DNA from: Acidobacteriota bacterium
GTDB taxonomy: Bacteria > Acidobacteriota > UBA6911
NCBI GenBank assembly: GCA_012719455.1
Contig: JAAYAJ010000002.1
Span: forward strand, 929-64,928
Length of the DNA stretch: 64,000 nucleotides
Reading direction: 5' to 3'
Below the pieces are notes generated by a model. It did no database searches and was not told the DNA's origin. It was given only the letters and a program-made list of their open reading frames with translations. The translations under genes were made by a program, and so were the position numbers. How positions within the stretch are numbered: position 1 is the stretch's first letter; the number at the start of each line of letters is the position of its first letter. Shown one piece after another: positions 518-64,000 of the stretch.

Positions 518-544
518 CTCTTCATTCTCCTTCCAGTTTTTGTG

Positions 545-600: not shown

Positions 601-653
601 CACTTCCCGACTCCCAGCGCCGGGCCGTAGGACCTATGTTTTCACCTTCAGGG

Positions 654-1092: not shown

Positions 1093-1102
1093 TGCAAGCC
1101 TC

Positions 1103-3316: not shown

Positions 3317-3410
3317 GTGTCCTCCTGCTCCATCCTCGATGGAATCCCACAGATATTTTTGGATTGCCTTACTTTTTTAGTCTTGCCGAAACTTTGCCGC
3401 AAAAAAAAAT

Positions 3411-3659
3411 TTATTCCACAATGATCCTCTGGGCCATGCCCCGACCCAACACTATCCGGCTGCCCTTTACAGCTATAATAAACGGTCCATGGAGGGAGTT
3501 CCGAAGCACTTCGATCTCCACGCCCGGCACCAGCCCCATCGAGGCCAACCTGCCCTGGAACCCATGCCCCGCATTCACGGCGACAAATCGTACTCGCCTA
3601 CCCGCTTGTACAATTGTTAACGGCATTGCATAAACCTCGTTACCGGACTTGATTGCCAT
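3411..3659 (-). CDS. feoA: FeoA (SH3-like ferrous iron transport protein A).
   Basis: 82-aa ORF ...LASMGLVPGVEIEVLRNSLHGPFIIAVKGSRIVLGRGMA..., typical of FeoA. It starts directly at the upstream stop codon. Confidence 0.8.
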   Translation of the reverse strand: MAIKSGNEVYAMPLTIVQAGRRVRFVAVNAGHGFQGRLASMGLVPGVEIEVLRNSLHGPFIIAVKGSRIVLGRGMAQRIIVE

Positions 3660-11308: not shown

Positions 11309-11332
11309 TCCCCCGCCACCGGAACCGACTAT

Positions 11333-22290: not shown

Positions 22291-22304
22291 GGAGGAGACA
22301 TATC

Positions 22305-24432: not shown

Positions 24433-24476
24433 GGGGCCGCGGGTCGCGAGTGCGACCCGCGGCCCCTTTTTTATTT
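24433..24476. terminator. Bidirectional rho-independent terminator between the AOR gene (+) and nifS (-).
   Basis: Perfect 15-bp stem GGGGCCGCGGGTCGC gagt GCGACCCGCGGCCCC followed by TTTTTTATTT. Confidence 0.7.
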
Positions 24477-25691: not shown

Positions 25692-25697
25692 GCCCGC

Positions 25698-26666: not shown

Positions 26667-26854
26667 CGTCCGACTCCGCGTGATTGCCAGTAGTTCCGGC
26701 CCGGGCGGCGCCCGGCGTGACACCCATCGGCGACGCCCCACCACCTCAGGCCGGAGGAACTTTATAATATAGCGCTTCGGCGGGCTTCAGGCAAACGTGC
26801 AGGTGGAGGGGAAGCGGCGGGAGTGTGGTAGAATGCCCCAAGCGGGCGGCCCCT

Positions 26855-43036: not shown

Positions 43037-45661
43037 ATGTTTCGAAAACCCTTACCAACGCTTTTCCCCCGCCCGGTGGTCCTCCTGCTCGGGTTCTGGC
43101 TCACAGCCACCGCCTTCCAGGGCGCCCCGGAGGACGCCTGGGCGGAGCGGACGCTCGCCGGGCTCTCCCTCAGGGACAAGATCGCGCAGCTGGTGCAGAT
43201 CCGGGTCCCGGGAACGTTCCTCAACCGCCGGGGCCCCGAATTCCTGAAGATTGCGGCGGAGATCCGGGAGCACCACGTCGGAGGGGTGGTCCTGTTCGCG
43301 GGCCATGTCCACGAATCGGCCGTACTGCTGAACGAACTGCAGGGCATGTCCCGGCTGCCGCTGCTGGTCGCCTCCGATTTCGAGCGTGGGGCGGCTTTCA
43401 GGATTTCGGATACGACCCCCTTCCCCTGGACGATGGCGCTCGGCGCGGCGGGGGACGAATCCCTGGCCTACCGGCAGGGCCGCGTCACGGCCCGCGAGGC
43501 GCGCGCCCTGGGGGTGCACTGGATCTTCGCTCCCGTGGTGGACATCAACAGCAATCCCGAAAACCCCGTCATCAACATCCGGTCGTTCGGGGAGGACCTG
43601 GAAACCGTCGCCCGCCTGGGCGCCGCTTTCATCCGCGGGGCGCGCGAGGGGGGGGTGCTGACCACGGCGAAGCATTTTCCCGGGCATGGGGACACGGCGG
43701 TCGATTCCCACCTCGGCCTGCCGGTGATCAGGGCGGATGCCCGGCGGCTGCGCTCGCTGGAATTCGTCCCCTTCCAAAGCGCCATCGCGGCGGGGGTGGA
43801 CTCCATCATGACGGCTCATGTCGCGGTCCCCGGAATAACGGGAGACGCGGGGGTTCCCGCCACCCTTTCCGCCAGGGTGCTTACCGACGCCCTGCGCGGA
43901 GAACTGGGGTTTGAGGGACTGGTCGTCACCGACGCCCTGGAAATGGCCGGGGTCACCGGCCGCTACTGGGGCGGCCGCGCGGCCGTGGCCGCGCTCGCGG
44001 CCGGGGCCGATATCCTGCTTTTGCCCACCGACGCGCTCGTGGCCATCAACGAGGTCGAGCGCGCCGTCGGGCGCGGGGAGATTTCCGAAGCCCGCATCGA
44101 CGCCTCGGTCCTGAAGATCCTCAAGGCCAAGAGCCGGCTGCGGCTCCATCTTCACCGGCGGGTCGAGCTCCCCTCCATCGGCTCCGACGTGGCCGCGCCG
44201 GAAAGCCTCGCCCTGGCCCAGGAAATCGCCGATCGCGCCGTCACCGTCGTCAGGGACGATGCACGGCGGCTGCCGCTCGACCCAGTCGCGGAACCGAGGA
44301 TCTACAGCCTCGTGCTGACCCCCGGCCTCGATTCTTCCCCCGCGTCCGTTTTCCAGGCCGAACTGCGCCGCCGGTTTCCCACCGTGACCACGGCCTGGGC
44401 CAACGCCCGCATCCCCGCCGATCAGGAGGAGGCGATCTTGAAAAGCGCGGCGAACGCGGACGTCGTCCTCTGCTCCATCGTGATGCGGCTGGCGACCGGC
44501 CAGCCGTCCCAGTCGATCCCGGCCGCGCAGCGCCGGATCCTGGCACGGCTGGCCGCGTCCCCCCGGCCGGTGATCTGGATCGCGCTGGGAAGCCCCTACG
44601 TACTTGAAATGGCGCCCCCGTCGGTCACATCCCTGTGCACCTTCAGCACCTCCGAATCCTCGCAGATCGCCGCCGCAAAAGCGCTCTCGGGCGCCGTCCG
44701 GGTCGCGGGGAGGCTCCCCGTCTCGATCCCGCGCTATGCCGGCGCCGGCTCCGGGATCGAGATCCCGCGGCTCAAAATGGTGCTCGAGCCTGCAGACGCG
44801 CTCTCGATGGGGCTTTCCCCGGACGCTTTCGATCCCACCCGCCGCTCTATCCGTGACCTGACCGGGGCCGGGGTGCTGCCCGGCGTCCAGCTCGTCGTCG
44901 GGCTCCGCGGAAAGATCGTGTTCGAAGCCTCCGCCGGTCGCGGTGGCCCCGATCCCGACGCCCCCGCCGTCCTGCCGGAAACGGTCTTCGACCTGGACAC
45001 CCTGTCGCTCCCGGCGGCGGCCACCATGGCGGCCGCCCCGGCGATGGAAGAAAGGGCGTTCGACCTCCGTTCCCCCCTCGCCGACTATGTCCCCGAGGCC
45101 GCGGACCGGGCGCCCGGAGCCGGGGCCATCCTGGACCTCCTCGGTCCCCTCTCGGGCCCGTCACCGGGCGAAGAGCCCGCGGAGCTCTTCACGGAAGCGG
45201 TTTCACGCTCGCTCGGAGTCCCCTGGCACCGCTTCGTCTCGGAAAACCTCTTTGCGCCGCTCGGTATGAAGCACACGTCCCACACCCCCCCGGCCCGGCT
45301 GCACACAGCGGGACGCCCGACGCCGCTCTCCCTGTACGGCACGGCCCGCGACCTGGCGGTGTGGGCGCAGATGCTGCTCAACCGCGGCCTGTACGACCAT
45401 CGCCGCCATGCGCGCGCCGCCACGATCACGGCGCTCACCGGCTCGCGGGGGCCCTGGTCGAAGCCGTCCGGGGCGGACTGGACCGCGGGCCTGGGGCGCT
45501 CCGCCTACGGGCACAACGCGCCCAACGGCTCCTTTTTCTGGGTGGACCCGGAACGGAAGCTCTTCGTCATCCTGCTTGCCAACGGACGAAAGGGGGACGC
45601 CGCGGTGCTCGAGGCCCAGCGGGTCCTGGCGGAATCGGTCCTCGCGGCGCTCTCCAAGTGA
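43037..45661 (+). CDS. Secreted GH3 beta-N-acetylhexosaminidase (NagZ-like) fused to a C-terminal beta-lactamase/serine-hydrolase-like domain.
   Basis: Signal peptide. GH3 motifs KHFPGHGDTAVDSH, ITDALEMAG. C-terminal domain ...FDLDTLSLP...YGHNAPNGSFFWVDPERKLFVILLANG is beta-lactamase-like but lacks the SxxK lysine. Confidence 0.75.
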   Translation: MFRKPLPTLFPRPVVLLLGFWLTATAFQGAPEDAWAERTLAGLSLRDKIAQLVQIRVPGTFLNRRGPEFLKIAAEIREHHVGGVVLFAGHVHESAVLLNELQGMSRLPLLVASDFERGAAFRISDTTPFPWTMALGAAGDESLAYRQGRVTAREARALGVHWIFAPVVDINSNPENPVINIRSFGEDLETVARLGAAFIRGAREGGVLTTAKHFPGHGDTAVDSHLGLPVIRADARRLRSLEFVPFQSAIAAGVDSIMTAHVAVPGITGDAGVPATLSARVLTDALRGELGFEGLVVTDALEMAGVTGRYWGGRAAVAALAAGADILLLPTDALVAINEVERAVGRGEISEARIDASVLKILKAKSRLRLHLHRRVELPSIGSDVAAPESLALAQEIADRAVTVVRDDARRLPLDPVAEPRIYSLVLTPGLDSSPASVFQAELRRRFPTVTTAWANARIPADQEEAILKSAANADVVLCSIVMRLATGQPSQSIPAAQRRILARLAASPRPVIWIALGSPYVLEMAPPSVTSLCTFSTSESSQIAAAKALSGAVRVAGRLPVSIPRYAGAGSGIEIPRLKMVLEPADALSMGLSPDAFDPTRRSIRDLTGAGVLPGVQLVVGLRGKIVFEASAGRGGPDPDAPAVLPETVFDLDTLSLPAAATMAAAPAMEERAFDLRSPLADYVPEAADRAPGAGAILDLLGPLSGPSPGEEPAELFTEAVSRSLGVPWHRFVSENLFAPLGMKHTSHTPPARLHTAGRPTPLSLYGTARDLAVWAQMLLNRGLYDHRRHARAATITALTGSRGPWSKPSGADWTAGLGRSAYGHNAPNGSFFWVDPERKLFVILLANGRKGDAAVLEAQRVLAESVLAALSK

Positions 45662-51680: not shown

Positions 51681-51828
51681 CCCTTCCCCCTCGCCCTTTC
51701 CATCAATTCTTGCCACTCCCTCCCCCTTCTGTGGTACAAAGTGCGACAAGGGCCCGGGGCGCAGCCCGACCGTTCGGCGACGGCGCCCCGGTCACGGAAT
51801 GCAGCCACCAAAGGAAAGTCGGAGACCC

Positions 51829-53541
51829 ATGGACAAGAAACTGGCGCCGTTGCTCGATCCGCGCGGGCACCAGGAACGGCCGACCGTTCCCCTGGCGCCC
51901 CGCGGCGGCATCGAGAATCTCAGGCGGGGAAAGATCCTCTTTTACGACAACACCAAACTGGGCTTCTGCAACTACGGCGAAGTCTTCGTCCGCATCCGGG
52001 AGCGCCTGCGCGGACTGGGGATATCGAATTTCGTCGACTACCGGGAAACCGTCCGCGGCAAGGACACCCGGGAACTGGAGGCGTACGCGGCGATGCTCGC
52101 CCGGGAAAAGCCGGCGGCCGCCGTCGTGGCCCTCGGCGACATGGGCACCTCCCCCGCGACCTGCATCGTCACCATCGCGCTGGAGAAGCTGGGCATCCCG
52201 AGCGTCTACATCACCGCCCCCCCCGGCGGGGACCTGGTCGAGGGGGTCGCGGCCTACCGCGCCGGGAACCTCTGCCTGTGCAAGATCGATATCTACCAGG
52301 CGAGCACCCGGGAAGAGGTGCGTGCCCAGGTAGACCTCAAGTGGGACTTCATCATGGAATCGCTCGCGGGGACGCCCGAGCAGGTCCGCGAGGCCGCCCG
52401 CATCGATTTCAAGATGGACCTGGCGCCCCCCGCCGCCGACGGGCTGCTTCCCGTCACCGCGGGGATCGAGCCGAGCGAGGAGAGGGTGTACGAACCTGGT
52501 TGCTACATGGAAGAAATCATGGAGTACCTCGACCGGGAACACCTGGGGGACGGCCTGCCGGTCATTCCCCCGACCGCGGCGCGCCTCGAAAGGATGTTTT
52601 CCTGCTGCCCCTTCGCGCCGGAAACCCCCCTGTGGCACGAGGTCGGACCCGCGGGCAAGGACGTCACTGTCCGCGACGTCGCCATCGCGGCGGTGATGGC
52701 CGGGTGCCGACCGGAGGCGATGCCGGTCCTGGTGGCCGCGTTCCGGGCGATGGCCGACCCCCGGTACAACCTGCTGCAGTCGGTGACGACGTCCCACCCC
52801 GGGGGGAACCTGGTCCTGGTCAGTGGCCCGATCGCCCAGGAGATCGGGATCTCGGGCCGGCAGGGGTGCCTGGGCCCCGGGTATCCCGCCAACGCCACCA
52901 TCGGGCGGGCGGTCAACCTCGTCATCCTGAACGTGTGCCGGGCTGTCCCCGGCGTCTGCGACCTCGACTGCCTCGCCTCGCAAGCGGAATTCACCTACTG
53001 CTTCGCCGAGGAGCCCTCCCTGGCCCAGTGGCCGATGATCAACGAGGAGCGCTGCGACGCCCGGACCACGACCGTCTACGTGCTCAAGGCGGAGCCGCAG
53101 CACGACATCATCGACTTCCTGAGCCTGAACGGCCATGACCTGCTCGACACCCTGATCGACTGCTGCACGACGCTCGGGACCAACAACGCCTACATCCCGG
53201 GGCCGCTGGTGCTGGTCCTGACCCCGGATCACGGGATGATGCTGAAAAATTCGGGGTATACCAAGGACGCCATCCGCGAGCAGGTCCACCTGAGGGCGAC
53301 CCACGACGTACCCATGGTGCGCAACCGCGGGCTGGTCCCGGTGCGCCCCCCGGAATTCGCCCATCGCCACCCGATGCCGGTGACCCGGTCACCCCGGGAC
53401 ATCGAGGTGGTCGTCGCCGGAGGGCGCGGGGGGCATTCGGGCGTCATCCTGCCCTGGGCGTTGCACAGCGAGGGGATCGTCCTGCCGGTGACCCTGCCCG
53501 ACGGCACCCCGGCGCACAGCATCGACCAATTCAGGAAGTGA
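51829..53541 (+). CDS. Conserved hypothetical protein (570 aa), first gene of an operon with an FAD oxidoreductase and a Mo-hydroxylase large subunit.
   Basis: RBS aaggaaag..ggaga before ATG at 51829. Multiple Cys (CC pairs at 259/260 and 445/446). No family recognised with confidence. Confidence 0.5.
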   Translation: MDKKLAPLLDPRGHQERPTVPLAPRGGIENLRRGKILFYDNTKLGFCNYGEVFVRIRERLRGLGISNFVDYRETVRGKDTRELEAYAAMLAREKPAAAVVALGDMGTSPATCIVTIALEKLGIPSVYITAPPGGDLVEGVAAYRAGNLCLCKIDIYQASTREEVRAQVDLKWDFIMESLAGTPEQVREAARIDFKMDLAPPAADGLLPVTAGIEPSEERVYEPGCYMEEIMEYLDREHLGDGLPVIPPTAARLERMFSCCPFAPETPLWHEVGPAGKDVTVRDVAIAAVMAGCRPEAMPVLVAAFRAMADPRYNLLQSVTTSHPGGNLVLVSGPIAQEIGISGRQGCLGPGYPANATIGRAVNLVILNVCRAVPGVCDLDCLASQAEFTYCFAEEPSLAQWPMINEERCDARTTTVYVLKAEPQHDIIDFLSLNGHDLLDTLIDCCTTLGTNNAYIPGPLVLVLTPDHGMMLKNSGYTKDAIREQVHLRATHDVPMVRNRGLVPVRPPEFAHRHPMPVTRSPRDIEVVVAGGRGGHSGVILPWALHSEGIVLPVTLPDGTPAHSIDQFRK

Positions 53542-53573
53542 AAACCGCGACGGGCGGAACGGAGAGAGCGTGC

Positions 53574-55004
53574 ATGGAAATATACGGTGAATACGATGTC
53601 GTCATAGCCGGCGGGGGGACCTCGGGGGTCGCCGCCGCCATCGCCTCCGCGCGCACCGGCGCGCGTACCCTCCTCGTCGAGCGGCTCGGCACCCTCGGGG
53701 GGCAGATGAACGTGTCCGGGCCGCCGGGGTTCGCCTACGCCTACATGTTCAACCCGCGCCGGGAACAGATCATCGCCGGGATCCTCGAGGAAACGCACCG
53801 GCGGCTGCTCGAGGCGGGGCACGCCCTTCCCCATACCACCCCCGATTTCCGCGTCGGCTACAGCTTCTCCCTGGTGGACCCCGATTACTGGGGCCTCCTC
53901 GTCTTCCAGATGATGCAGGAGAACGACGTCGAACTACTGCTCCATTCCCTGGTCGTGGACGCGGTCATGGAAGGGGACGCGATCCGCGGGGTGATCGTGG
54001 AAAACCCCTCCGGCCGGCAGATCGTGCTCGGCAAGATCGTCATCGACTGCACCGGGGAGGGGGAACTCGCCGCGCGCGCGGGCGCGCCCTATGAACAGGC
54101 TCCAAAGGAGGACCTGGAGCCGCACACGGTCTCCTTCACCGTCGACGGGGTCGACTGGGACAAGGTCCTCGCCTACGTCAAGGAGAACGCGGCCTACGAG
54201 TTCAATGCCATGACCCATCCCTACCTCGGCTGGAGCGAAGAGGAGATCATCGAGAGGATCCGGCGGGTCGAGGATGTGCGGGAGATCTCCAACTTCATGG
54301 GTTATTACACCCTGCGGGACCGCGCGGTGGCCGCCGGGGAGTACCACCCCTACAGCGGCGTCGGCTTCTTCATCCTGCCCCGCGACCACGGGGTTCTGCA
54401 GGCGCACTTCCAGCACTCGTCGCAGGTGGGGAACGCCGACCCCACCGACGTCCGCGACCTGACCCGGTGCGAAATCGAGTGCCGGGCGCAGATCCGGATG
54501 GCCCTGGGCTTCATCCGGCGCTACATGCCGGGGTTCGAGAACTCCTACCTGACGCGCGTCTGCCCGGAGCTGAGGATCCGGGAGAGCCGGCGCATAGTGG
54601 GGGACTACGTCCTGTGCAAGCAGGACGTGGCCGAGGCGCGCAAATTTCCCGACGTGATCGGCAAGAGTTCCTTCGCCAGCGGGGCCAAGCATGTAGCCAC
54701 GGCCGACACCATCTCCTACGAGGGGATCGTCTACCCGAAGGACGGCGGTTCCTACGACATTCCCTACCGCTGCCTGGTCCCCCGGAAAGTTGAAAACCTG
54801 CTGGTGGCCGGAAAGGCGATCTCAACCGACCGGGCCTCCTATGCGCGCTTTCTGCAGCTGACCATGGTCACGGGCCAGGCCGCCGGCGTCGCCGCCGCCC
54901 TCTCGGCCCGGGAAGGGATCACTCCCAGGCAGCTCGAGGCCGATGTCACGGAACTCCAGCGGGTCCTCCAGCAGCAGGGAGCGATCCTGTTCGGAACCCA
55001 TTAG
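53574..55004 (+). CDS. FAD-dependent oxidoreductase (FAD_oxidored/PF12831-like).
   Basis: YDVVIAGGGTSGVAAAIASARTGARTLLVERLGTLGG dinucleotide-binding motif; C-terminal GKAIS...VTGQAAGVAAA. Confidence 0.75.
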   Translation: MEIYGEYDVVIAGGGTSGVAAAIASARTGARTLLVERLGTLGGQMNVSGPPGFAYAYMFNPRREQIIAGILEETHRRLLEAGHALPHTTPDFRVGYSFSLVDPDYWGLLVFQMMQENDVELLLHSLVVDAVMEGDAIRGVIVENPSGRQIVLGKIVIDCTGEGELAARAGAPYEQAPKEDLEPHTVSFTVDGVDWDKVLAYVKENAAYEFNAMTHPYLGWSEEEIIERIRRVEDVREISNFMGYYTLRDRAVAAGEYHPYSGVGFFILPRDHGVLQAHFQHSSQVGNADPTDVRDLTRCEIECRAQIRMALGFIRRYMPGFENSYLTRVCPELRIRESRRIVGDYVLCKQDVAEARKFPDVIGKSSFASGAKHVATADTISYEGIVYPKDGGSYDIPYRCLVPRKVENLLVAGKAISTDRASYARFLQLTMVTGQAAGVAAALSAREGITPRQLEADVTELQRVLQQQGAILFGTH

Positions 55005-55014
55005 CGAGGTTGCC

Positions 55015-57426
55015 ATGGACTACAGGCCCTGGACCTGGAAGGTGCCCGAAAATTACCGGGAAACGCAGCCGTCCATCCGCCGCCAGGACGCCTGGGAGAA
55101 GGTGAGCGGGAGCGCGGTCTACACCCGCGACATTACGCTGCCGGGAATGCTGTACGCCAAGATCCTGACCTCTCCTTACGCCCACGCGCGGATCACGCGC
55201 ATCGACAGCACGCGCGCCGAGGCGCTGCCGGGCGTCCGGGACGTGCTCCGGTTCACCGACCCGGACATCGCCCATGACAGCGCCACCGGGGCCTGGTACG
55301 AGATTTCGGGGAACTACGATATCCTGACCCTCCCCGGCACGGCCGACTTCTTCCAGCACCCCATGGGGGTCGCGATCACGGCCGACAGCGAGGAGGTCTG
55401 CGACCGCGCCCTGCGCCTCCTCGACATCGAATGGGAGGAGATCCCCTTCATCCTGGACATGGAGGAGTCGATCCGTCCGGACGCGCCCAAGATCATGGCC
55501 GACGTCCGGCGCACCAACGCCCATGCCCGCGAACCCAATACCATCCTGACGGAGAGTTTCACCCTCGGCGATCCGGACGGGGGATTCGCCGCGGCCGACC
55601 GGGTCCTCCGGTACAAGATCACCCGCGAGATGAACGCGCCGGTCGCAGCCGAACCCGCCGTCTGCATCGCCCAGTGGCGCGGGGATTTTCTCGACCTCTG
55701 GGTCCACCACCACGACATCCCGCACTGGTTCCTCGTCAACCCTACAGAGGCCCGGGAGCAAACGGTCCCCCCCCTCGCCGAGTGGTCCAAAATCACAGCC
55801 ACCCTTCCCTACCAGGGGTGCATGTTCGGCGGCTTCGCCTGGCTCGCCTACTCCGCCTGCTTCACCCGGCTGGCCGTCATCCTCGCCCGCCGGGCGGGCG
55901 GACGGCCCATCAAGCTCCTGTACGACGAGAGCGCCCATTACTGCCTGGGGGACGACGGCGGCACCTACAGCTGCACGGTAGGCGCGAAAAAGGACGGCAC
56001 CATCACTTCCGCCGCCTGGCACGTCGTCGGCCCGCGCAACGCCCTGGCCGAGAAGACCTACGAGGGGACGGCGATCCCCAACTTGCGCGCCACCTGCGAG
56101 TGGGGGCTCGTCAACCGGGGGCACCAGATGTGCTTCCGCCATGGGGCCAACAGCTGCGTCCCCCATGGCGTCATGTTCGACCGGGTGGCCGCGGAGTTCG
56201 GGCTCGACCCCACCGAGGTGGCGCTCCGCAACGACGGCTGCCGGGGGCACGACTGGGACTGGGTCACGCGCTACCAGAGGGAGAACGGCTTCCCCGAACG
56301 CTGGAGCCTGCGCGAGGTGATCGAGAAGGGGAAGGCGGCCATCGACTGGGACCGGAAATGGCACCCGCCGGGAACGCGAAAACTCCCGGACGGGAAAATG
56401 CACGGGATGGGCTTCATGCAAGTGCTCGAATGGACCTGGCAGGCTCCGGCGAGCGCGATGTCCTGGGCCTGCCTGATGCTGCGCAACGGCATCGTGGCCA
56501 TCGTGGGGGTCCGCAGCGACATCGGCTCCGACACCGAATCGGGCGCCCGGCACATCGTCGCCTCGGAACTGGGGCTGAAATACGAGGACACCGTAATCCA
56601 GGAGCGCCGCTCGGACAACTCGAGCTTCTACATGTGGCAGCCCGGCGGTTCCTTTTCCACCGCCTATATCAACACCCAGCTGGTCATGGCCGCCCGCGAG
56701 CTGAAGCGGAAGATCCTCGAGTACGCCGTAAGCCCCACTCCCGCCTACAACTCGAGCCACTTCTTCAAGACCGCCGGCCCCCCGGCTTTCCCCGGCCTGC
56801 GCCCGGAAGAACTCGACATCCGCGACAGCTTCGTTTTTGAAAGGGCCCGCCCGGAAAACAGGAAGACGCTGCGGGAGGTGGCCGACATCTTCTGGGACGC
56901 CGACCCGGCCCTGGCTCATCCCGTAGTCGGAACCGTCTCCGGCCTGACCATGGACGGCAATCCCGATCCGACGATGTACGTCATGGGGCGCCAGGCCCAT
57001 TTCATCGAGGCCGCGGTCGACACCGAAACGGGGATGGTCGACATCATGCGCATCGTCTGCGTCAACGACGTAGGGCACCTGTTCAACCCGCGCGGAGCCC
57101 AAGCCCAGCAGTACGGCGGGGCCCTGATGGGGCTCGGCCGGAGCGCCACGGAGGAGCAGGTCTGGTGTCCACGCACCGGGGTGGGTCTGAATTTCGACCT
57201 GGCCCAGTACCACATCGGGACGATGAACGACTACCCGCCGGCCGAGTGCCTCGTCGTCGAGAGCCACCTGGGGTACGCCGCCTTCGGCGCCTTCGGCATA
57301 GGGGAGAACGTGGGGGCGGCCATGTCGGGCATCACCGCCTCGGCCATCTACAACGCGACCGGGAAATGGGTCTCGGACTACCCGACCACCCCCGACCGGG
57401 TGCTGCGGGCGCTCGGCAGGATCTGA
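55015..57426 (+). CDS. Xanthine dehydrogenase/aldehyde oxidase-family molybdopterin-binding large subunit. No adjacent FeS or FAD small subunits.
   Basis: N-terminal a/b-hammerhead ...WEKVSGSAVYTRDITLPGMLYAKILTSPYAHARI. 803 aa Ald_Xan_dh_C-type body. Confidence 0.85.
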   Translation: MDYRPWTWKVPENYRETQPSIRRQDAWEKVSGSAVYTRDITLPGMLYAKILTSPYAHARITRIDSTRAEALPGVRDVLRFTDPDIAHDSATGAWYEISGNYDILTLPGTADFFQHPMGVAITADSEEVCDRALRLLDIEWEEIPFILDMEESIRPDAPKIMADVRRTNAHAREPNTILTESFTLGDPDGGFAAADRVLRYKITREMNAPVAAEPAVCIAQWRGDFLDLWVHHHDIPHWFLVNPTEAREQTVPPLAEWSKITATLPYQGCMFGGFAWLAYSACFTRLAVILARRAGGRPIKLLYDESAHYCLGDDGGTYSCTVGAKKDGTITSAAWHVVGPRNALAEKTYEGTAIPNLRATCEWGLVNRGHQMCFRHGANSCVPHGVMFDRVAAEFGLDPTEVALRNDGCRGHDWDWVTRYQRENGFPERWSLREVIEKGKAAIDWDRKWHPPGTRKLPDGKMHGMGFMQVLEWTWQAPASAMSWACLMLRNGIVAIVGVRSDIGSDTESGARHIVASELGLKYEDTVIQERRSDNSSFYMWQPGGSFSTAYINTQLVMAARELKRKILEYAVSPTPAYNSSHFFKTAGPPAFPGLRPEELDIRDSFVFERARPENRKTLREVADIFWDADPALAHPVVGTVSGLTMDGNPDPTMYVMGRQAHFIEAAVDTETGMVDIMRIVCVNDVGHLFNPRGAQAQQYGGALMGLGRSATEEQVWCPRTGVGLNFDLAQYHIGTMNDYPPAECLVVESHLGYAAFGAFGIGENVGAAMSGITASAIYNATGKWVSDYPTTPDRVLRALGRI

Positions 57427-57435
57427 CAGCCGGCG

Positions 57436-58650
57436 TCAGCGCCCGCCGCGGAAGCCCGGGAAGGGGGAGAGCGCCCGGTCGAGCACCCCGAGGGAGTAGG
57501 TGATCGCCACGCCGTAGTTGGTGATCGGGACCCCGGCTTCGCGGCAGCGCAGGATGCGCGAGAGCACCTCCCGGCGGTTGAGCATGCAGGAACCGCAGTG
57601 GATGACCAGTTGGTAGGCGCCGATCTCCTCGGGGAAATCGTGCCCCTGCAGGTGGACGAATTCCAGGTCGGCCCCCGTGTACTGACGGATCCAGCGCGGG
57701 ATCTTGACCCTGCCGATGTCCTCGCCGATGGGGTGGTGGGCGCACGATTCCAGGACCAGGACCCGGTCCCCCGCCCGCAATCGGTCGACCGCCTTTACCC
57801 CGCGCACGAACTCCGCCAGGTCCCCCTTGAGCCGGGCGAAGAGGATGGAAAAGGAGGTCAACGGGACCCCGTCGGGCACGTCCCCGGCCACCCGCAGGAA
57901 GACCTGGGAATCGGTCACGACCAACGCCGGGGACTCACGGAGCCGGCCGAGCGCGGTGCGCAGCTCCCGCTCCTTGACCACCAGGCAGCAGGAGTCGTGG
58001 TCCAGAACGTCACGGATCGACTGCACCTGGGGGAGGATGAGCCGGCCGCGCGGAGCTTCCAGGTCGATGGGGACCACGAGCACGACCATGGACCCCGGCG
58101 CGATCAGGTCCCCCAGGATCGGCGGAGCCTCCAGGAACTCTTCAGGGGCCGACCGGACCAGGGCTTCGCGCAACCCGCCGATTCCGCGCCCGAGGCCGGC
58201 GGCCGTGACCACCACCGGGATCTTCCTCTTTTCGAGGTCCCGCAGGGTTGCGGGAGCGGGAGCGCCCAGGTCGGACTTGTTGAACACGACGATGACGGGG
58301 ATCTTCCGCCGCTCGAGTTCCCCGAGGACCCCCTCCTCGAACGAGCCCCAGTCCGCCCCCGCCGCCACGAGGATCCCCAGGTCGGTCCGCTCGAACACCT
58401 GCCGCGTGCGCCCCGCACGTACCTCCCCGAGCGCGCCCTCATCGTCGATCCCCGCGGTGTCGATGAACAGGACCGGGCCGAGCGGCGGCAGTTCCATCGG
58501 CTTTTCCACCGGGTCGGTCGTGGTTCCGGGAACGTCGGAAACGATCGACACCTCCTGGCGCGTGAGCGCGTTCAGGAGCGAGGACTTCCCCACGTTGCGG
58601 CGGCCGAACAGGCCGATGTGCACTCGCATCCCCTTGGGCGTAGCTTTCAT
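57436..58650 (-). CDS. hydF: [FeFe]-hydrogenase maturation GTPase HydF.
   Basis: G1 LFGRRNVGKSSLLNAL; G3 DTAGID; NKSD G4. C-terminal cluster-binding CAHHP...HCGSCMLNRRE (CxH...HCxxC) and a ...YGVAI-type C-terminus. Start at internal M83. Confidence 0.85.
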   Translation of the reverse strand: MKATPKGMRVHIGLFGRRNVGKSSLLNALTRQEVSIVSDVPGTTTDPVEKPMELPPLGPVLFIDTAGIDDEGALGEVRAGRTRQVFERTDLGILVAAGADWGSFEEGVLGELERRKIPVIVVFNKSDLGAPAPATLRDLEKRKIPVVVTAAGLGRGIGGLREALVRSAPEEFLEAPPILGDLIAPGSMVVLVVPIDLEAPRGRLILPQVQSIRDVLDHDSCCLVVKERELRTALGRLRESPALVVTDSQVFLRVAGDVPDGVPLTSFSILFARLKGDLAEFVRGVKAVDRLRAGDRVLVLESCAHHPIGEDIGRVKIPRWIRQYTGADLEFVHLQGHDFPEEIGAYQLVIHCGSCMLNRREVLSRILRCREAGVPITNYGVAITYSLGVLDRALSPFPGFRGGR

Positions 58651-58753
58651 TCCTTTTCCTCCGGCGGAGGGCACCCCGCCCGCATGATACAGTCGGGGGT
58701 GCGCTCGGCGCCTCGAACTCCACGCGGAAGATCTGCTCCCGGGGCTCGCAGCT

Positions 58754-60178
58754 TCAGAAAATGAGGTCCCTCTCCCCGGCAGCCCGTATGCGCGCAAGGC
58801 GATTCTCGATCTCGTCCCGGTCGGCCGCCGGTCCAAGACGCTCGAGCTCGGCGCGGATGAGGGCTTCCCCGGCGGCGCGGGTCCCGGGCGAGGCATAATC
58901 GGCCAGGTACTCCTGGAGCGTCATCAGGGCGTTGGGGGTGCAGTAGCGCTTGATGAACCCCGGGACGGCAAACTCCATGAAGTGTTCGCCCGTCCGGCCG
59001 AGCCGGTAGCAGGCGGTGCAGAAGCTGGGGAGGTAACCGTCCTCGATCAGCTCGCGCATCACCGCGTCGAGGCTGCGGGTGTCCCCCAGTTCGAACTGTT
59101 CCCGGTCCCTGACCTGGCGGGCGTCCCGGTAGGTGTAGCCGCCGATCTCGATACGGCTGCCGGCGTCGATCTGGGAGACGCCGAGAGCCAGGAGCTCGCG
59201 CCGGAGCCTGGCCGGCTCCCGCGCGGTCAGGATCAGCCCGGTATAGGGGACCGCCAACCGGAGGGTGGCGATCACCCGGCGGAAATCGTCGTCCGCGATC
59301 GACCCCATTCCGGCCGGCTCCACGCCGCTGGCGGGCCGCAGTCGCGGGAAACTGATGGTGTGGGGGCCGACGCCGTACCGCCCGCGCAGGTACACGGCGT
59401 GCGCCACGAGCCCCAGGACCTCGAAGCGCCAGTCGTGCAGGCCGAACAGGACGCCGATGCCGACATCGTCGCACCCGGCCTCCAGCGCCCGGCTCAGGCC
59501 GTCGAGGCGGTAGGCGTAGTCCCCCTTCCGGCTGCCGCGGGCGTGTACGCGACGGTAGGTGCCGTGGTGATAGGTCTCCTGGAAGATCTGGTAGGTGCCG
59601 ATCCCCGCGGCCTTGATGGTGCGGTAGCCCTCCACGTCCATCGGGGCCGCGTTGATGTTGACCCTGCGGATCTCCCCGCGCCCCTTCCTCACCCCGTAGA
59701 CCGTGCGCACCTGCTCGGCGATGAATTCCGCATCGTATTTCGGGTGCTCTCCGAAGACCAGGATGAGGCGCTTGTGTCCCGCGTCTTCCAACCGTTCCAC
59801 CTGATCGCGCAGCTCGTCGGGAGTGAGGGTGCGGCGCACCGCCAGCGGGTTGCTGCGCCGGAAGCCGCAGTAGACGCAGTCGTTAACGCAGTCGTTGCCG
59901 ACGTAGAGCGGGGCGAAGAGCACGATGCGGTTGCCGTAGACAGTTTCCTTCAGGGTCCGGGCGGCGCCGAAAATCATCTCGAGCAACCCGGGGTCCTCCG
60001 TCCGCAGGAGCGCGGCCGTCTCTTCGACCGTGAGCGGCTCCTTTTCAAGGCTCTTGGCGATGACGTCCTGGACCGTTTCCCGATCGGGCGCGGGCCCCTC
60101 GAGCAGCGAGGAAAGGTAGGCGTCGTCGATGAAATCGACCGCGCCCGGGCTGGTTTTCAATGCAGGCAATCCAGACAT
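58754..60178 (-). CDS. hydG: [FeFe]-hydrogenase H-cluster radical-SAM maturase HydG (ThiH-like with a C-terminal auxiliary-cluster motif).
   Basis: Radical SAM CVNDCVYCGF. ThiH/BioB-like body. C-terminal SFCTACYRLGRTGEHFMEFAVPGFIKRYCTPN (CxxCx22C) distinguishes HydG from ThiH. Confidence 0.85.
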   Translation of the reverse strand: MSGLPALKTSPGAVDFIDDAYLSSLLEGPAPDRETVQDVIAKSLEKEPLTVEETAALLRTEDPGLLEMIFGAARTLKETVYGNRIVLFAPLYVGNDCVNDCVYCGFRRSNPLAVRRTLTPDELRDQVERLEDAGHKRLILVFGEHPKYDAEFIAEQVRTVYGVRKGRGEIRRVNINAAPMDVEGYRTIKAAGIGTYQIFQETYHHGTYRRVHARGSRKGDYAYRLDGLSRALEAGCDDVGIGVLFGLHDWRFEVLGLVAHAVYLRGRYGVGPHTISFPRLRPASGVEPAGMGSIADDDFRRVIATLRLAVPYTGLILTAREPARLRRELLALGVSQIDAGSRIEIGGYTYRDARQVRDREQFELGDTRSLDAVMRELIEDGYLPSFCTACYRLGRTGEHFMEFAVPGFIKRYCTPNALMTLQEYLADYASPGTRAAGEALIRAELERLGPAADRDEIENRLARIRAAGERDLIF

Positions 60179-60189
60179 GCAAAACCCCG

Positions 60190-61329
60190 TTATCGGGAAG
60201 CATTCGCGGAACCCGGGCGCAGCACCACGCTGAAGGTGCTGCCGACGTCGGGGCGGCTCTCCACGGAAATGTCACCATCGTACAGCGTGACAATTTTTTT
60301 GAGCGTCGACAAACCGAGCCCGCTTCCCGAGATGTGCCGGGTCTTGTCGTTCTTGATGCGAGAGAAATCGCGGAACAGCCGCTGACATTCTTCGGGGGTC
60401 ATGCCGATGCCCGAATCTTCCACGTCGAGGCGGATCTCGTCTTCCACCTCCTGGACCCGAACGCCGACCCGGCCCCCGTCCCGGTTGTATTTCACGGCGT
60501 TGGATACGAGGTTGTTGAAGATCATCTCGATCTCGGCCCGGTCGGCCTCTATCCCGGCTCCCTCCGGCAGGTCCAGGTCGATCGTGATGCCGCGCCGCGC
60601 GGCTTCGGCCTTCACGTTTTCCACCGCCTGGCGGGCGATCTCGCCCAGGTCCACCGTCGCGATCACCCGCTGGCGCTGCCCGGATTCAATGGAGGTCATG
60701 TCGAGCAGGTCCGATATGAGCTTACGCATCCCCTCGATGCGCACGAGGCAACGGTCCACGATGTGGTCATAATCCGCGAGCGTTTCACCGACCGCGCGCT
60801 CGCGCATCATCTGCAGGTAACCCTCGATGGCGGAGATGGGCGCCTTCATCTCGTGCGCCAGGACGCTGACGAACTGGAACCGGACCTGGCGCTTTTCCTC
60901 CGCCAGGCGCCGCGCCTGGCGCTGCAGGATCAGGTGCCGCGCCGCCTTCCGGACCGCGCCCCGGAGTTCTTCCGGCGTAAAGGGTTTGGCGAGAAAATCA
61001 TAGGCCCCCCGCCGCGTGGCGGTCACCGCCGTGTCGAGCGATGCGTACGCGGTGATCATGATGACCAGCAGGTCCAGGGGCTGTTTCATGAGCCGGTCCA
61101 GGATGTCGAGTCCCGTCGTATCCGGCAGCTTGTAGTCGAGGATCACGATGTCGGGCTGCTCCTCGGCCATCCTCTCGTCGAATTCCCTGCCGTCGGCCGC
61201 CGTGCGGATGTTGAAACTGACGTCGCCGTTGATGTCGTGCAGGTGCAGGTGCATTTTGCGCAGGGCGCGCTCCGCCCCCCGGCGCATCCCGTATTCGTCG
61301 TCCACGATGAGAATATTGAGGAGATCCAC
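60190..61329 (-). CDS. Hybrid sensor: N-terminal response-regulator receiver fused to a histidine kinase (HisKA plus HATPase_c). Probable GTG start.
   Basis: Receiver ILIVDDEYGMRR...DIVILDYKLPDTTGLDIL; H-box SVLAHEMKAPI; N/G boxes NLVSNAVKYN, GSGLGLST. Confidence 0.8.
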   Translation of the reverse strand: MDLLNILIVDDEYGMRRGAERALRKMHLHLHDINGDVSFNIRTAADGREFDERMAEEQPDIVILDYKLPDTTGLDILDRLMKQPLDLLVIMITAYASLDTAVTATRRGAYDFLAKPFTPEELRGAVRKAARHLILQRQARRLAEEKRQVRFQFVSVLAHEMKAPISAIEGYLQMMRERAVGETLADYDHIVDRCLVRIEGMRKLISDLLDMTSIESGQRQRVIATVDLGEIARQAVENVKAEAARRGITIDLDLPEGAGIEADRAEIEMIFNNLVSNAVKYNRDGGRVGVRVQEVEDEIRLDVEDSGIGMTPEECQRLFRDFSRIKNDKTRHISGSGLGLSTLKKIVTLYDGDISVESRPDVGSTFSVVLRPGSANASR

Positions 61330-61345
61330 TACCGGCGCCTTTCCG

Positions 61346-61729
61346 CTACTGGACTTCTTTCAGGAGACGGTCCACCTCATCGGCCAGGATGCGGGGATTG
61401 ACCGGCTTGTTCAGGAACGTGCTCACCGGCAGCCAGGTCTCGTCGGGCGTAAAACCGAACTGCAGGTCCATCTCCTTGCTGATGCCCGTCAGCATGACCA
61501 GCGGCATCTTGGGATAGCTCGCGTGGAGCTCGCGCGCGAGCTCGAAACCCGCGGTCTTGTCCTCCATCATGACGTCCAGCACCGCCAGGTCCGGGACCTC
61601 GGCCGCCACCGCCCGCCTCGCTTCGGCCGCCGAGAAGGAGACCGTGACCCTGTGCCCGCGCTGGGCGAGAACCGTCCGATTCATCTCGATAATGTCCTGG
61701 TCGTCGTCGACCAACAGAATGTGAGCCAT
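61346..61729 (-). CDS. Single-domain (CheY-like) response-regulator receiver.
   Basis: MAHILLVDDDQDII...DLAVLDVMME...LVMLTG...KP. RBS aggagg. Confidence 0.8.
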   Translation of the reverse strand: MAHILLVDDDQDIIEMNRTVLAQRGHRVTVSFSAAEARRAVAAEVPDLAVLDVMMEDKTAGFELARELHASYPKMPLVMLTGISKEMDLQFGFTPDETWLPVSTFLNKPVNPRILADEVDRLLKEVQ

Positions 61730-61759
61730 TGCAGCCTCCTTTTCAGAAACACGCCCGGC

Positions 61760-63760
61760 CTACTCGTCCCGCGACCTCCGCGGAAGCCTGACCGTGAATT
61801 GAGTTCCCGTCGGTCCCGCTGACGGATCGCTGTTGGACACCATGGTAATGTCCCCCCTGTGCATCTTAACAATTCCGTAGGTTACGGCAAGTCCCAGGCC
61901 GGTCCCCTTCCCGATCTGCTTGGTGGTGAAGAAGGGCTCGAAGATCTTGGCCTGGTTGTCCTTGGGCACGCCGATGCCGGTGTCGGCGACCGCGAAGCGG
62001 ACCGCGTCGGCGTCCCCTTCGGCCGTCACCAGGACGCTCCCCCCGTCCGGCATCGCTTCGCAGGCGTTGCCGAACAGGTTGGTGAGGACCTGGTTGATCT
62101 GGTCGGGATCCAGGTCGACCACCGGGTCCTCGATCCGGAGCTCCACCCGCGCTTCGATGTTGGCGGGAAAGGGGTAGGCCTTGACCGCGTGCCGCAGCAG
62201 TTCACCCAAATCGACGGTCCGCAGCACGGCCTTGTTCTGGCGGGCGAAGTGGAGCAGCCGGACCACGATCTTCTTGCAGCGGTCCGCCTGCTCGGCGATC
62301 ATGTCCAGGTCTTCCTTCCACTCCGGGTGTTCCCCTGCCTCCTCGAGCAGCATGTGGGCGTGCATCAGGACGATCCCGAGCGGGTTGTTGACCTCGTGGG
62401 CCACCCCGGCGGCCAGCTGCCCCATGCTGGCGAGCCTTTCGGAGTGCATCAGCGCCTCCTGCGTGCTGATGAGCTGCTCGTGGGACTCCTCCAGCTGCTG
62501 GTTGATGTCCCGGAGCTTCTCGATCGTGTACGGAAGGCACATCTCCGTTTCGGCCAGGTGGCGGTGGATGGCGATGGCGTGTTCCACGCAGGTGTCGTAG
62601 CCGCAGGCGCCGCAGTTCAGTTCATCCTCGGACCGCAGCTTCCCCATGCGCGCGAGGATGGCCGTCACCTCCTCCCGCGAGGGCTGGGAGATGCGCTGGT
62701 CGTAGGGGCTGAATTTCCGCCTTAAATCGACATCGCGGAAGCGCTCCATGTCGGCCTCCCAGCGCTTCCGCCGCTCCTCATCCCGGCAGCGGTCCCTGAC
62801 GTACCGGCCCACCAGGCTCCGGCGCCAGAAGAGGCTCGTATCCACCGTCATGCCGGCCCCCATGATGCAGCCGTTGCAGCAGAGGACCTCGAGCAGGCGC
62901 ACGTCCAGGCTGCTCGATTCCGCCGCCTGGATCGCCTCGACGAAATTGGTCCGCCCGTCCGTGGCCAAGATCTCCCCCTGCATCAGGTCTTCCCTGATGT
63001 CGGCCGCCTGCAGCAGCCCCCGGCTGATGGGGAAAAGCCCCCCGGAGCCGCTCCAGGGCGGGTCGAAATCCCCGCCCGTCACGGTGTCCGGCGCGATCCC
63101 GGCGCCGGAGAACATCTGGCGCAACTCGGCGAACGTCAGCACCGCCGCGACCTCGCCGTCGAGCTCCTTGCTGGCCGCCTCCCCCTTCTTGGCGATGCAG
63201 GGACCGATAAAAACCACGGGGACCCCGGGCCCGTACAGCCGCTTCAGCACGCGGGCGGCGGCCACCATCGGGGAGACGATGGGGGCCAAGCGGGGAACCA
63301 GGTCCGGGTAGTACCTCTCGACGTAGCCCACCAAGGCAGGGCAGGTGGAAGCAATGTAGTGGCTGTAGGGGGGGTGTTCCAGGAGCTCCCGGTAACCCCG
63401 GGCCACCAGGTCGGCGGCAAAGCCGACCTCGTGCACGTAGCGGAAACCCAGGGCCCGGATCATCCCGACGACGGCCTCGGGGGGACACTCCTCGAACTCG
63501 GCGGCGAAACTCGGGGCGACGATGGCGGCAACGGCGGCGTGGCGTCCGAAAAGGGCCTCCACGTCATGGGTCCCGTCGAGCACCTGCTTGGCACCCTGGC
63601 TGCACACGCTGGCGCAGTTTCCGCACCCGATGCACCGTTCGGGGATCACGCGGGCCTGGCCCTCGGAAATGCCTATGGCCTTGGCGGGGCATTCGCGCAC
63701 GCACGTGTAGCATACGCGGCAGCGCTCCTTGATCGTTTGTACGAAACATGCCGCCTGCAT
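61760..63760 (-). CDS. Sensory (HydS/Group-C-like) [FeFe]-hydrogenase domain fused to a histidine kinase.
   Basis: N-terminal 2x[4Fe-4S] motifs CRVCYTCVRECP / CIGCGNCASVCS. H-cluster-like motifs ASTCPALV (L1), IGPCIAKKGE (L2), EVLCCNGCIMG (L3). Accessory C-x2-C-x4-C-x16-C (NCGACGYDTCVEH...EMCLPY). H-box GVAHEVNNPLG; HATPase GTGLGLAVTYG. Confidence 0.8.
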   Translation of the reverse strand: MQAACFVQTIKERCRVCYTCVRECPAKAIGISEGQARVIPERCIGCGNCASVCSQGAKQVLDGTHDVEALFGRHAAVAAIVAPSFAAEFEECPPEAVVGMIRALGFRYVHEVGFAADLVARGYRELLEHPPYSHYIASTCPALVGYVERYYPDLVPRLAPIVSPMVAAARVLKRLYGPGVPVVFIGPCIAKKGEAASKELDGEVAAVLTFAELRQMFSGAGIAPDTVTGGDFDPPWSGSGGLFPISRGLLQAADIREDLMQGEILATDGRTNFVEAIQAAESSSLDVRLLEVLCCNGCIMGAGMTVDTSLFWRRSLVGRYVRDRCRDEERRKRWEADMERFRDVDLRRKFSPYDQRISQPSREEVTAILARMGKLRSEDELNCGACGYDTCVEHAIAIHRHLAETEMCLPYTIEKLRDINQQLEESHEQLISTQEALMHSERLASMGQLAAGVAHEVNNPLGIVLMHAHMLLEEAGEHPEWKEDLDMIAEQADRCKKIVVRLLHFARQNKAVLRTVDLGELLRHAVKAYPFPANIEARVELRIEDPVVDLDPDQINQVLTNLFGNACEAMPDGGSVLVTAEGDADAVRFAVADTGIGVPKDNQAKIFEPFFTTKQIGKGTGLGLAVTYGIVKMHRGDITMVSNSDPSAGPTGTQFTVRLPRRSRDE

Positions 63761-63812
63761 GATGGCTCCGTCCGGCTCCGACCGGCCCGCCCGGAGGCGG
63801 ATCCGCCTTGGT

Positions 63813-64000
63813 TTAGGCGTGCCCGCCGCCCGCGTCGGCGGCTTCCTGCAGCAACCGGTGCACCTCGTTCCTCAACTGCTCCGGGCGCACCGGCTTGTCC
63901 ATGATCCGGTTCGCCTTGATCCAAGACTGGGCCTCCGGGTAGAGCGCGGAAAACGACAGCCCCGTCTCCCCCGCGACCGCAGTCAGGAGAAGGATGGGGA
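63813..64000 (-). CDS. Response-regulator receiver domain protein. C-terminal part only; the gene runs off the window end.
   Basis: Reverse translation ...PILLLTAVAGETGLSFSALYPEAQSWIKANRIMDKPVRPEQLRNEVHRLLQEAADAGGGHA* looks like a receiver alpha4-beta5-alpha5 region. Confidence 0.55.
   Translation of the reverse strand, partial: PILLLTAVAGETGLSFSALYPEAQSWIKANRIMDKPVRPEQLRNEVHRLLQEAADAGGGHA

Follow-up and report, generated by a model that had tools for sequence, protein, structure and literature searches.

A putative H2-sensing hydrogenase-histidine kinase in a rex-to-hydF [FeFe]-hydrogenase gene cluster of an uncultured Acidobacteriota bacterium

Positions 57436-64000 of a 64-kb stretch of DNA (the window in what follows) from an uncultured Acidobacteriota bacterium of anaerobic digesters carry six genes on the minus strand. 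One of them encodes a protein of 666 residues, called here HydS::HK, in which a hydrogenase-like domain is joined to a histidine kinase; around it are encoded receiver proteins, a second kinase and two maturases of the H-cluster cofactor, HydG and HydF. What would such a kinase sense, and which protein are the maturases there to serve? A first-pass annotation had seen in the set a multistep phosphorelay that senses H2 or redox state and comes with the means of making its own cofactor. We consider it likely that the region is the downstream two-thirds of an [FeFe]-hydrogenase cluster of about 13 kb, running from rex to hydF and including an H2-sensing HydS::HK. The sensor-kinase probably reports the H2 made by the neighbouring hydrogenase and shares the cofactor-building genes with that enzyme.

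The hydrogenase genes beyond the window's end

The window breaks off at position 64000, within the hydrogenase locus. A look-up of the exact sequence of the 666-residue protein led to contigs from anaerobic-digester metagenomes and to an Acidobacteriota metagenome-assembled genome (MAG; GCA_030058655.1). Window positions 51760-64000 are 100% identical to one of these contigs, L002, and 99.98% identical to two others, L001 and L003, so that the three show which genes lie past position 64000. Directly upstream of the truncated receiver gene, and on the same strand, they carry rex, hydC, hydB and hydA, which gives the full order rex, hydC, hydB, hydA, REC, hydS::HK, REC, REC::HK, hydG, hydF (REC, receiver; HK, histidine kinase). 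The end of hydA lies 74 nt before the gene of the first receiver, REC137, and about 300 nt past position 64000. The earlier statement that the window holds neither a catalytic hydrogenase nor hydE is therefore literally correct, but for the hydrogenase it reflects the position of the window's edge.

Rex scores 179 bits against the model NF003995 (cutoff 126), HydC is NuoE-like, and HydB, a protein of 1090 residues (L002:4424-7696), combines a NuoF-like module with a GltD/NfnB-like flavoprotein module (Fer4_20 and Pyr_redox_2). HydA, of 571 residues (L002:7745-9460), matches NF040763, "NADH-dependent [FeFe] hydrogenase, group A6", with 832 bits (cutoff 765) and carries the Fe_hyd_lg_C (1e-94) and Fe_hyd_SSU domains. 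Its P2 and P3 motifs are canonical. In its P1 motif TSCSPGW stands in place of TSCCPGW, which puts Ser at the position of ligand C300 of the hydrogenase CpI and Cys at that of C299. The same TSCSPGW is found in about 75% of the HydA genes of the related loci L005-L087 and in HydA1 of Acetobacterium woodii, whose structure is solved (PDB 7q4v); it appears compatible with a real hydrogenase. The variant P1 and the GltD-fused HydB had raised the possibility that HydA is not a hydrogenase (cf. NfnABC/Stn-type enzymes). This was rejected because P2 and P3 are of the canonical form, as is the small-subunit domain, the NF040763 score is above cutoff and A. woodii HydA1 has the same P1. What lies directly upstream of the "sensor" genes is thus, by prediction, a catalytic group A hydrogenase. 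A GltD-like module just upstream of hydA occurs in a minority of related loci (about 14 in one table, 10 of 68 in the synteny tally), most of which have a receiver gene between hydA and hydS::HK, and this suggests that the GltD-type HydB marks a distinct NAD(P)H-linked hydrogenase subtype.

The cluster may be under a second layer of control, by NADH/NAD+, as suggested by a Rex operator-like site ahead of rex. This site, TCGTGAAGGTAATCACAA (L002:3237-3254), is a palindrome with one mismatch, 27 nt ahead of the start of rex. No other one-mismatch match occurs in the 22-kb locus (0.18 expected; at least one in 15% of shuffles), and the palindrome overlaps the best sigma-70-like site in 17 kb, the only promoter match at 10 of 12 positions. 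Apart from it, the promoter and terminator scan yielded nothing informative. At the thresholds used, neither Pfam nor NCBIfam gave a match for an open reading frame (ORF) of 589 residues upstream of rex (L002:1395-3164).

A sensory-type hydrogenase joined to a kinase

HydS::HK is encoded at 61760-63760 (minus strand). Its description as a putative sensory [FeFe]-hydrogenase with a histidine kinase draws on Pfam, NCBIfam and PDB sequence searches, on an AF2 model compared by Foldseek, and on a family alignment. Pfam finds a Fer4 dicluster, Fe_hyd_lg_C (5.3e-47), the FeS domain PF04060, HisKA and HATPase_c. For the assignment of individual residues the protein was aligned to the co-encoded HydA, with the CpI numbering verified on the PDB chain 1c4a/3c8y, and conservation was judged in 16 HydS::HK homologs of 60-100% identity. 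The N-terminal part (residues 10-57; 63590-63733, minus strand), a ferredoxin-like domain for two [4Fe-4S] clusters, matches Fer4_10, Fer4 and Fer4_7 and has its cysteines at 14, 17, 20 and 24 and at 43, 46, 49 and 53; all eight are invariant. The H-domain that follows (residues 77-302; 62855-63532, minus strand) was delimited by PF02906, the motif alignment and Foldseek. Its P1 reads A-S-T-C140-P, with C140, aligned to the second Cys of TSCCP, at the place of CpI C300. In P2, G-P-C188-I-A-K191-K-G-E, C188 corresponds to C355 and K191 to K358. P3 reads E-V-L-C294-C295-N-G-C298-I-M-G, with C295 or C294 at the place of C499 and C298 at that of the bridging C503. Compared with group A, the P3 loop lacks one residue and carries an additional neighbouring Cys; pairing of C294 with C298 would give CxxxC. 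Like C140, C188 and K191, the three P3 cysteines are invariant. The presence of the H-cluster Cys ligands had been set beforehand as the test of this domain, and C140, C188 and C295/C298 are indeed there.

The Pro and Ser residues of the 2Fe pocket are kept as well. The proton-transfer positions, in contrast, are swapped (C299 to T, E279 to G, S319 to A and R286 to H, in CpI numbering; the family has T, S or N at 299), and M353 and M497 are replaced by G and L. Downstream of the H-domain, an accessory cluster motif, Cx2Cx4Cx16C, is formed by Cys 383, 386, 391 and 408, all invariant (62531-62620, minus strand; PF04060 at 5.4e-07, positions by regular expression). The score of 172 bits against the NCBIfam hydrogenase model TIGR04105 is below the cutoff of 450, as is to be expected because only two-thirds of the protein is hydrogenase-like. 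The AF2 model has a mean pLDDT of 73, rising to about 90 over residues 60-240, and Foldseek aligns it with CbA5H, the HydA of HydABC and CpI at E-values of 1e-17 to 1e-19 over 410-450 columns. HydS::HK thus has the features of a putative "sensory" [FeFe]-hydrogenase of group C type, in which the cluster cysteines are kept and the catalytic proton-transfer pathway is gone. The strict conservation across phyla of the [4Fe-4S]H ligands, of Lys191 and of the 2Fe-pocket residues points to selection on the H-cluster itself, and we infer that HydS::HK binds an H-cluster built by HydE, HydG and HydF.

The way in which this hydrogenase-like part is connected to the kinase is unusual with respect to the described sensory hydrogenases of group C. 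As the first-pass annotation had noted, Pfam places no PAS, MCP or phosphatase domain between the hydrogenase-like domain and HisKA/HATPase_c. No PAS match was obtained in HydS::HK at E<=0.01, and the roughly 35 residues between PF04060 (381-410) and HisKA (446-508) are too few for a PAS domain. Some 45 residues, predicted to be helical, separate the last cluster Cys (408) from the invariant phospho-acceptor His455, which lies in H-E-V-N-N-P. The linker and DHp/HisKA region (residues 411-508; 62237-62530, minus strand; HisKA 2e-13) contains AF2 helices at 413-424 and 431-474. The AF2 monomer is poor here (pLDDT below 50 at residues 407-459) and hence says little about the geometry of coupling. 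In one homolog, P0104, exactly seven residues, i.e. one heptad, are deleted between Cys408 and His455 (window positions about 62396-62539), which is consistent with a coiled-coil signalling helix whose register is preserved. The HATPase_c domain (residues 551-662; 61775-62110, minus strand; 3.5e-25) has the N box (N561-N565-A566), the D/G1 box (D593TGIG, with D593-G595-G597) and the G2 box (G617KGTGL, with G617-G619-G621). The best PDB match of the kinase part is ZraS (9jfj, 6.5e-37), and Foldseek also lays the C-terminus on the ZraS kinase. The cluster module is thus predicted to run through a short helical linker straight into the dimerisation helix of the kinase, in place of the usual PAS domain.

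Hydrogenases fused or linked to kinases are known as a kind. HydDB lists an [FeFe] group C1, "histidine kinase-linked (putative)" (PMC5037454), and a 2024 study of Hydrogenedentota described HATPase_c and histidine-kinase domains inside C1 and C3 hydrogenases, often next to genes for A3 hydrogenases (PMC11406978). These proteins are, like HydS::HK, putative H2 sensors with kinase domains in the same polypeptide. What HydS::HK shares with HydDB C1 is the functional label, kinase linkage, here in the form of a fusion; the published descriptions of C1 and C3 include neither the conserved REC and REC::HK partners nor the embedding between hydA and hydEGF. Spectroscopic work has been published on the sensory enzymes TmHydS and TamHydS (PMC8163306, PMC13104023). 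The novelty claimed in the first-pass annotation was accordingly overstated; what stands of it is that no biochemical test of the kinase-fused form was found in the literature. This locus adds a new member to a known and widespread kind that is biochemically uncharacterised.

According to Land et al. (PMC8163306), the HydS type is defined by two N-terminal [4Fe-4S] motifs together with its hallmark, the C-terminal Cx2Cx4Cx16C, and a PAS domain after the C-terminal cluster defines M2f, or group C. Judged by its motifs, HydS::HK carries these HydS-type hallmarks except the PAS domain. TmHydS of Thermotoga maritima (group C/M2f) has the same N-terminal 2x[4Fe-4S] domain, H-domain ligands and C-terminal motif, has likewise lost Cys299 and exchanged M353 for Gly, and is encoded next to a group A HydABC (PMC8163306). 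It differs in having a PAS domain and no kinase where HydS::HK continues by a helix of about 45 residues into HisKA/HATPase_c; HydS::HK also has Thr at 299, Leu instead of Ser at M497, and a P3 shorter by one residue with the adjacent extra Cys. TamHydS of Thermoanaerobacter mathranii (group D/M2e) shares with HydS::HK the absence of PAS, the M497 to Leu exchange, the accessory clusters and a place beside a bifurcating hydrogenase. It has Ser instead of Gly at M353 and no fused output, whereas HydS::HK carries a kinase; a neighbouring gene of TamHydS encodes a histidine-kinase-like ATPase (PMC8163306). There is also a functional parallel in the [NiFe] regulatory hydrogenases (HoxBC-HoxJ-HoxA; HydDB [NiFe] group 2b), where a hydrogenase of low activity reports H2 to a kinase that controls hydrogenase expression (PMC5037454, PMC8163306). 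Those systems have an unrelated metal site and fold, separate sensor and kinase proteins that communicate through a PAS-like domain, and a known DNA-binding regulator, while in HydS::HK sensor and kinase are one polypeptide. A sensory reading of HydS::HK is plausible.

Receivers, maturases and synteny

The six window genes were confirmed by ORF listing and translation; the first-pass annotation had placed them correctly, with gaps of 11-103 nt, and its identifications agree with Pfam and NCBIfam. From the partial receiver gene to hydF, the gaps measure 52, 30, 16, 11 and 103 nt. Of REC137, the window holds the 3' part, the last 61 codons and the stop (63813-64000, minus strand, by frame translation), and the remainder lies beyond its end. 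The full-length protein has 137 residues (L002:9535-9948; the window part is a 100% tblastn match; Response_reg 7.6e-17). REC127, a single-domain receiver of 127 residues (61346-61729, minus strand; Response_reg 1.6e-16), showed no output domain in the Pfam search. REC::HK, of 379 residues (60190-61329, minus strand), consists of an N-terminal receiver (Response_reg 1.1e-25) followed by HisKA (2.9e-13) and HATPase_c (2.2e-27), with His159, N273, D305 and G335 in its kinase motifs. The three receivers all keep the acidic pair, the phospho-acceptor Asp, the Thr and the Lys (in REC137, the equivalents of DD, Asp57, Thr87 and Lys109), and the H, N, G1 and G2 boxes are complete in both kinases. The "hybrid" kinase of the first-pass annotation is therefore a second complete kinase with a receiver at its N-terminus. 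No HPt domain is found among the Pfam matches of the four signalling proteins, so that a multistep phosphorelay in the strict sense is unsupported. In the predicted circuit, a sensor kinase is combined with one or two stand-alone receivers and with a second kinase that a receiver controls. The sole DNA-binding protein of the cluster is Rex.

Both maturases are genuine. HydG, of 474 residues (58754-60178, minus strand), is a radical-SAM H-cluster maturase that scores 491.8 bits against TIGR03955 (cutoff 312) and 276 bits against the ThiH model, below the cutoff of the latter (380). It has the radical-SAM CX3CX2C at residues 97-104 and, at 387-413, the C-terminal CX2CX22C that had been named beforehand as its distinguishing mark. 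HydF, the H-cluster scaffold GTPase, of 404 residues (57436-58650, minus strand), scores 551.8 bits against TIGR03918 (cutoff 325.6) and has HydF_dimer and HydF_tetramer domains, a GTPase P-loop at residues 16-23 and a CxHx(n)HCxxC cluster motif at 303-355. Its ORF is open upstream to 58896, and the match to the family sets in at the 58650 start. From this organism's cluster, hydE and an aspartate-ammonia-lyase-like gene are missing. In related genomes they occupy the places of two spacers, that of 11 nt between REC::HK and hydG (60179-60189) and that of 103 nt between hydG and hydF (58651-58753); in a sister species, 95% identical, the lyase gene has been kept at its place between hydG and hydF (L005:15031-16422). 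A search for hydE with the HydE of a relative as seed did not single out the organism's own copy, the matches being about 70% identical across all phyla; two candidates, P0133 and P0211, came from other organisms.

Relatives of HydS::HK were sought in one genome per species, and at least 594 species genomes have one. Nine query proteins were mapped on the best 80 loci from other species. These 80 loci span more than 12 phyla by our count, the groups including Acidobacteriota, Planctomycetota, Hydrogenedentota, Myxococcota, Desulfobacterota, Verrucomicrobiota, Actinomycetota, Elusimicrobiota, Melainabacteria, Spirochaetota, Ignavibacteria/Bacteroidota and Clostridia. The kinase fusion is present in 68 of them; a Hydrogenedentales MAG (L009), for instance, has the same architecture. 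Among 61 loci with sufficient flanking sequence, 45 encode HydA directly upstream of HydS::HK, and 7 more encode it at another place in the locus. REC::HK has a homolog at most 1.8 kb downstream in 58 of 61, and a single receiver follows directly in 41 of 61. Maturases downstream on the same strand are found in just 12 of 43. The link of the sensor to HydABC and to REC::HK is much tighter than its link to the maturases, and the fuller clusters have the order rex-hydC-hydB-hydA-(REC)-hydS::HK-REC-REC::HK-hydE-hydG-(ammonia-lyase)-hydF. Since, in addition, catalytic hydA stands directly upstream, the maturases would be general to the hydrogenase cluster and an optional appendage of it, and not a private set of the sensor. 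The notion that the signalling genes carry machinery for their own cofactor does not survive this comparison. This locus is, on the whole, an ordinary member of a widespread family, in which the HydS::HK, single REC and REC::HK cassette is conserved between hydA and the maturase genes over more than 12 phyla.

The nearest relatives without a kinase were found in two loci, both beside hydCBA. A Thermovenabulum MAG (L080:9947-12616) encodes a fusion of HydS, PAS and a sigma54 enhancer-binding module, 889 residues long, and a Bacillota MAG (L084:9995-13044) encodes a HydS-PAS protein followed by a PP2C/SpoIIE-like gene. They share with HydS::HK the H-domain, the cluster module "DELNCGACGYD(T/S)C", 38-39% identity and the proximity of hydCBA. 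Where HydS::HK has its fused histidine kinase, the first has a PAS-AAA+-HTH enhancer-binding module as output and the second a separate PP2C-like protein. In another group of loci, mainly from Ignavibacteria/Bacteroidota and Thermoleophilia (L022, L025, L026, L040, L041, L049, L052, L054, L060, L063, L077 and L087), the signalling genes are followed, downstream of REC::HK or hydF, by a second hydC-hydB-hydA-like set of greater divergence (29-46% identity), with a receiver-containing protein before it and often another kinase-like gene after it.

The other genes of the window are housekeeping genes unrelated to the hyd cluster, among them FeoAB and a DtxR-like regulator, NifS/NifU, an aldehyde:ferredoxin oxidoreductase and MoaA. 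A convergent set on the plus strand (51829-57426) abuts hydF, 9 nt from its stop codon, and encodes a 570-residue UGSC-family protein, a 476-residue FAD_oxidored protein and a Mo-hydroxylase of about 800 residues (xanthine dehydrogenase/aldehyde oxidase family), beside which no genes for small Fe-S or FAD subunits were noted. At the other end of the window, positions 1-4418 have a G+C content of 0.55-0.58, as against about 0.67 elsewhere; feoB (1103-3316) and the gene of a DtxR-like repressor with a fused FeoA domain (3660-4418), both on the minus strand, are located there. An 874-residue protein (43037-45661, plus strand) has both the N-terminal and the C-terminal domain of glycoside hydrolase family 3 and a C-terminal beta-lactamase-family domain. 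Redox and Fe-S genes occur at 10364-12943 (plus strand; a DUF362 protein, then a 536-residue poly-ferredoxin), 22179-24407 (plus strand; the aldehyde:ferredoxin oxidoreductase) and 24471-26744 (minus strand; NifS/NifU), and no link was seen between them and the hyd cluster. Scanning the window for Rfam families and tRNAs gave no matches.

What the sensor-kinase may report

The following scheme would account for the cluster. H2 made or used by the adjacent HydABC would bind to the H-cluster of HydS::HK. The resulting change of state or conformation would travel by way of the C-terminal cluster module and then the helical linker, and would alter autophosphorylation at His455. The single-domain receivers and the REC::HK receiver would take over the phosphoryl group, and REC::HK may relay the signal to a target encoded outside the cluster. 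Rex would add control by NADH/NAD+, and HydG and HydF, with a HydE encoded elsewhere, would mature both HydA and HydS.

Several observations weigh against this scheme. Literature searches yielded no biochemical study of any kinase-fused HydS, and the authors of the Hydrogenedentota study were unable to identify P1-P3 in related C1 proteins and had doubts that these sense H2 (PMC11406978). The spacing of P3 is odd, CC-x-G-C being one residue short of CxxxC. No DNA-binding or other output domain is encoded among the signalling genes here or downstream of REC::HK in 8 other loci, where unrelated genes or more receivers are found and, in one case, a REC-Ser/Thr kinase. Neither the window nor the 22-kb segments of the identical contigs contain hydE. 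Co-transcription is deduced from the common strand, from gaps of at most 103 nt in the window and at most 74 nt upstream of it, and from terminator-like sites that are not enriched (11 found, 9.6 expected). Moreover, the C-terminal cluster of TamHydS is not reduced by H2 (PMC13104023, 2026). This makes a simple redox relay unlikely, and the coupling would more likely be conformational.

The same evidence has to be weighed for other readings. A self-contained operon for sensing H2 or redox state, in which hydG and hydF would supply the sensor's own cofactor and no catalytic hydrogenase would be linked, agrees with the window taken by itself: no other hydrogenase and no hydE lie in its 64 kb, and hydG and hydF follow the signalling genes at 11 and 103 nt. 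It is, however, hardly credible in view of the hydCBA genes, which the identical contigs show on the same strand and 74 nt ahead of the first receiver, of the maturases accompanying the sensor in 12 of 43 loci as against HydA in 45 of 61, and of the fuller clusters, in which hydE and the ammonia-lyase gene are added there as in ordinary hyd maturation clusters. Another possibility is that HydS::HK makes up a stoichiometric subunit of HydABC, of the "BfuT" type, which tunes the enzyme, the kinase and receivers acting post-translationally and not on transcription. Its gene comes immediately after hydA in the 45 loci just mentioned, no DNA-binding output domain is encoded nearby, and the group C3 hydrogenases of two BfuABC cluster subtypes have been called the "T subunit" (BfuT; PMC11406978). 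Yet HydABC complexes have been solved without such a subunit (PDB 7q4v, 8a6t, 7p5h) and orphan response regulators may be encoded elsewhere in the genome, and we hold this reading to be improbable.

The two remaining alternatives concern the H-cluster itself. The kinase could sense the cellular redox state, through reduced ferredoxin or electrons leaking from HydABC that enter by the N-terminal [4Fe-4S] clusters, the H-cluster being a mere electron sink or dispensable. The N-terminal clusters are the usual route of electron entry and are invariant, the gene cluster is also under a Rex-like redox repressor, and the proton pathway is disrupted, turnover by TmHydS and TamHydS being low (PMC8163306). 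Characterised HydS enzymes nevertheless react with H2 (PMC8163306, PMC13104023), and the [4Fe-4S]H ligands, Lys191 (CpI K358) and the 2Fe-pocket residues are strictly conserved across phyla, which speaks for selection on the H-cluster as such; we regard redox sensing of this kind as unlikely, though worth keeping in mind. The hydrogenase-like domain might also be degenerate, in the manner of Nar1/NARF or NuoG, holding Fe-S clusters without [2Fe] and making HydS::HK an Fe-S, or O2- or redox-sensing, kinase. In its favour are P motifs (ASTCP, GPC, LCCNGC) that deviate from the published signatures, the failure to find P1-P3 in the related C1 proteins (PMC11406978), and the TIGR04105 score of 172 bits where 450 is the cutoff. 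But the four ligand positions are invariant cysteines, Lys191 and the pocket Pro and Ser are kept, M353G and M497L are substitutions of TmHydS and TamHydS, which do bind an H-cluster (PMC8163306), and the best structural matches are true hydrogenases, all of which makes degeneracy quite improbable. Given the strict conservation of the H-cluster pocket, redox sensing, a degenerate domain and a HydABC subunit all appear less likely than an H2 sensor that works alongside the neighbouring hydrogenase.

If HydS::HK is such an H2 sensor, its circuit may not act on transcription. There is an outside chance that HydS::HK, REC and REC::HK constitute an H2-responsive circuit that acts post-translationally; phosphorylated receivers might, for example, attach to HydABC, to Rex or to the maturation machinery and in this way match the activity of the hydrogenase or the assembly of the H-cluster to ambient H2. 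If true, this would be a mode of control undescribed for any class of hydrogenase. The TamHydS study of 2026 concluded that the C-terminal cluster is not a redox relay and that interaction partners must be sought (PMC13104023). Here the natural fusion gives the sensor a built-in read-out, autophosphorylation and phosphotransfer to three co-encoded receivers, so that H2 sensing by hydrogenases of groups C and D becomes directly testable in vitro. The value of this locus is therefore that of a convenient test object, in which the fusion supplies a measurable output. The family to which it belongs is large and occurs in fermenters and syntrophs of digesters and sediments, and it may provide a common route by which anaerobes adjust to the partial pressure of H2.

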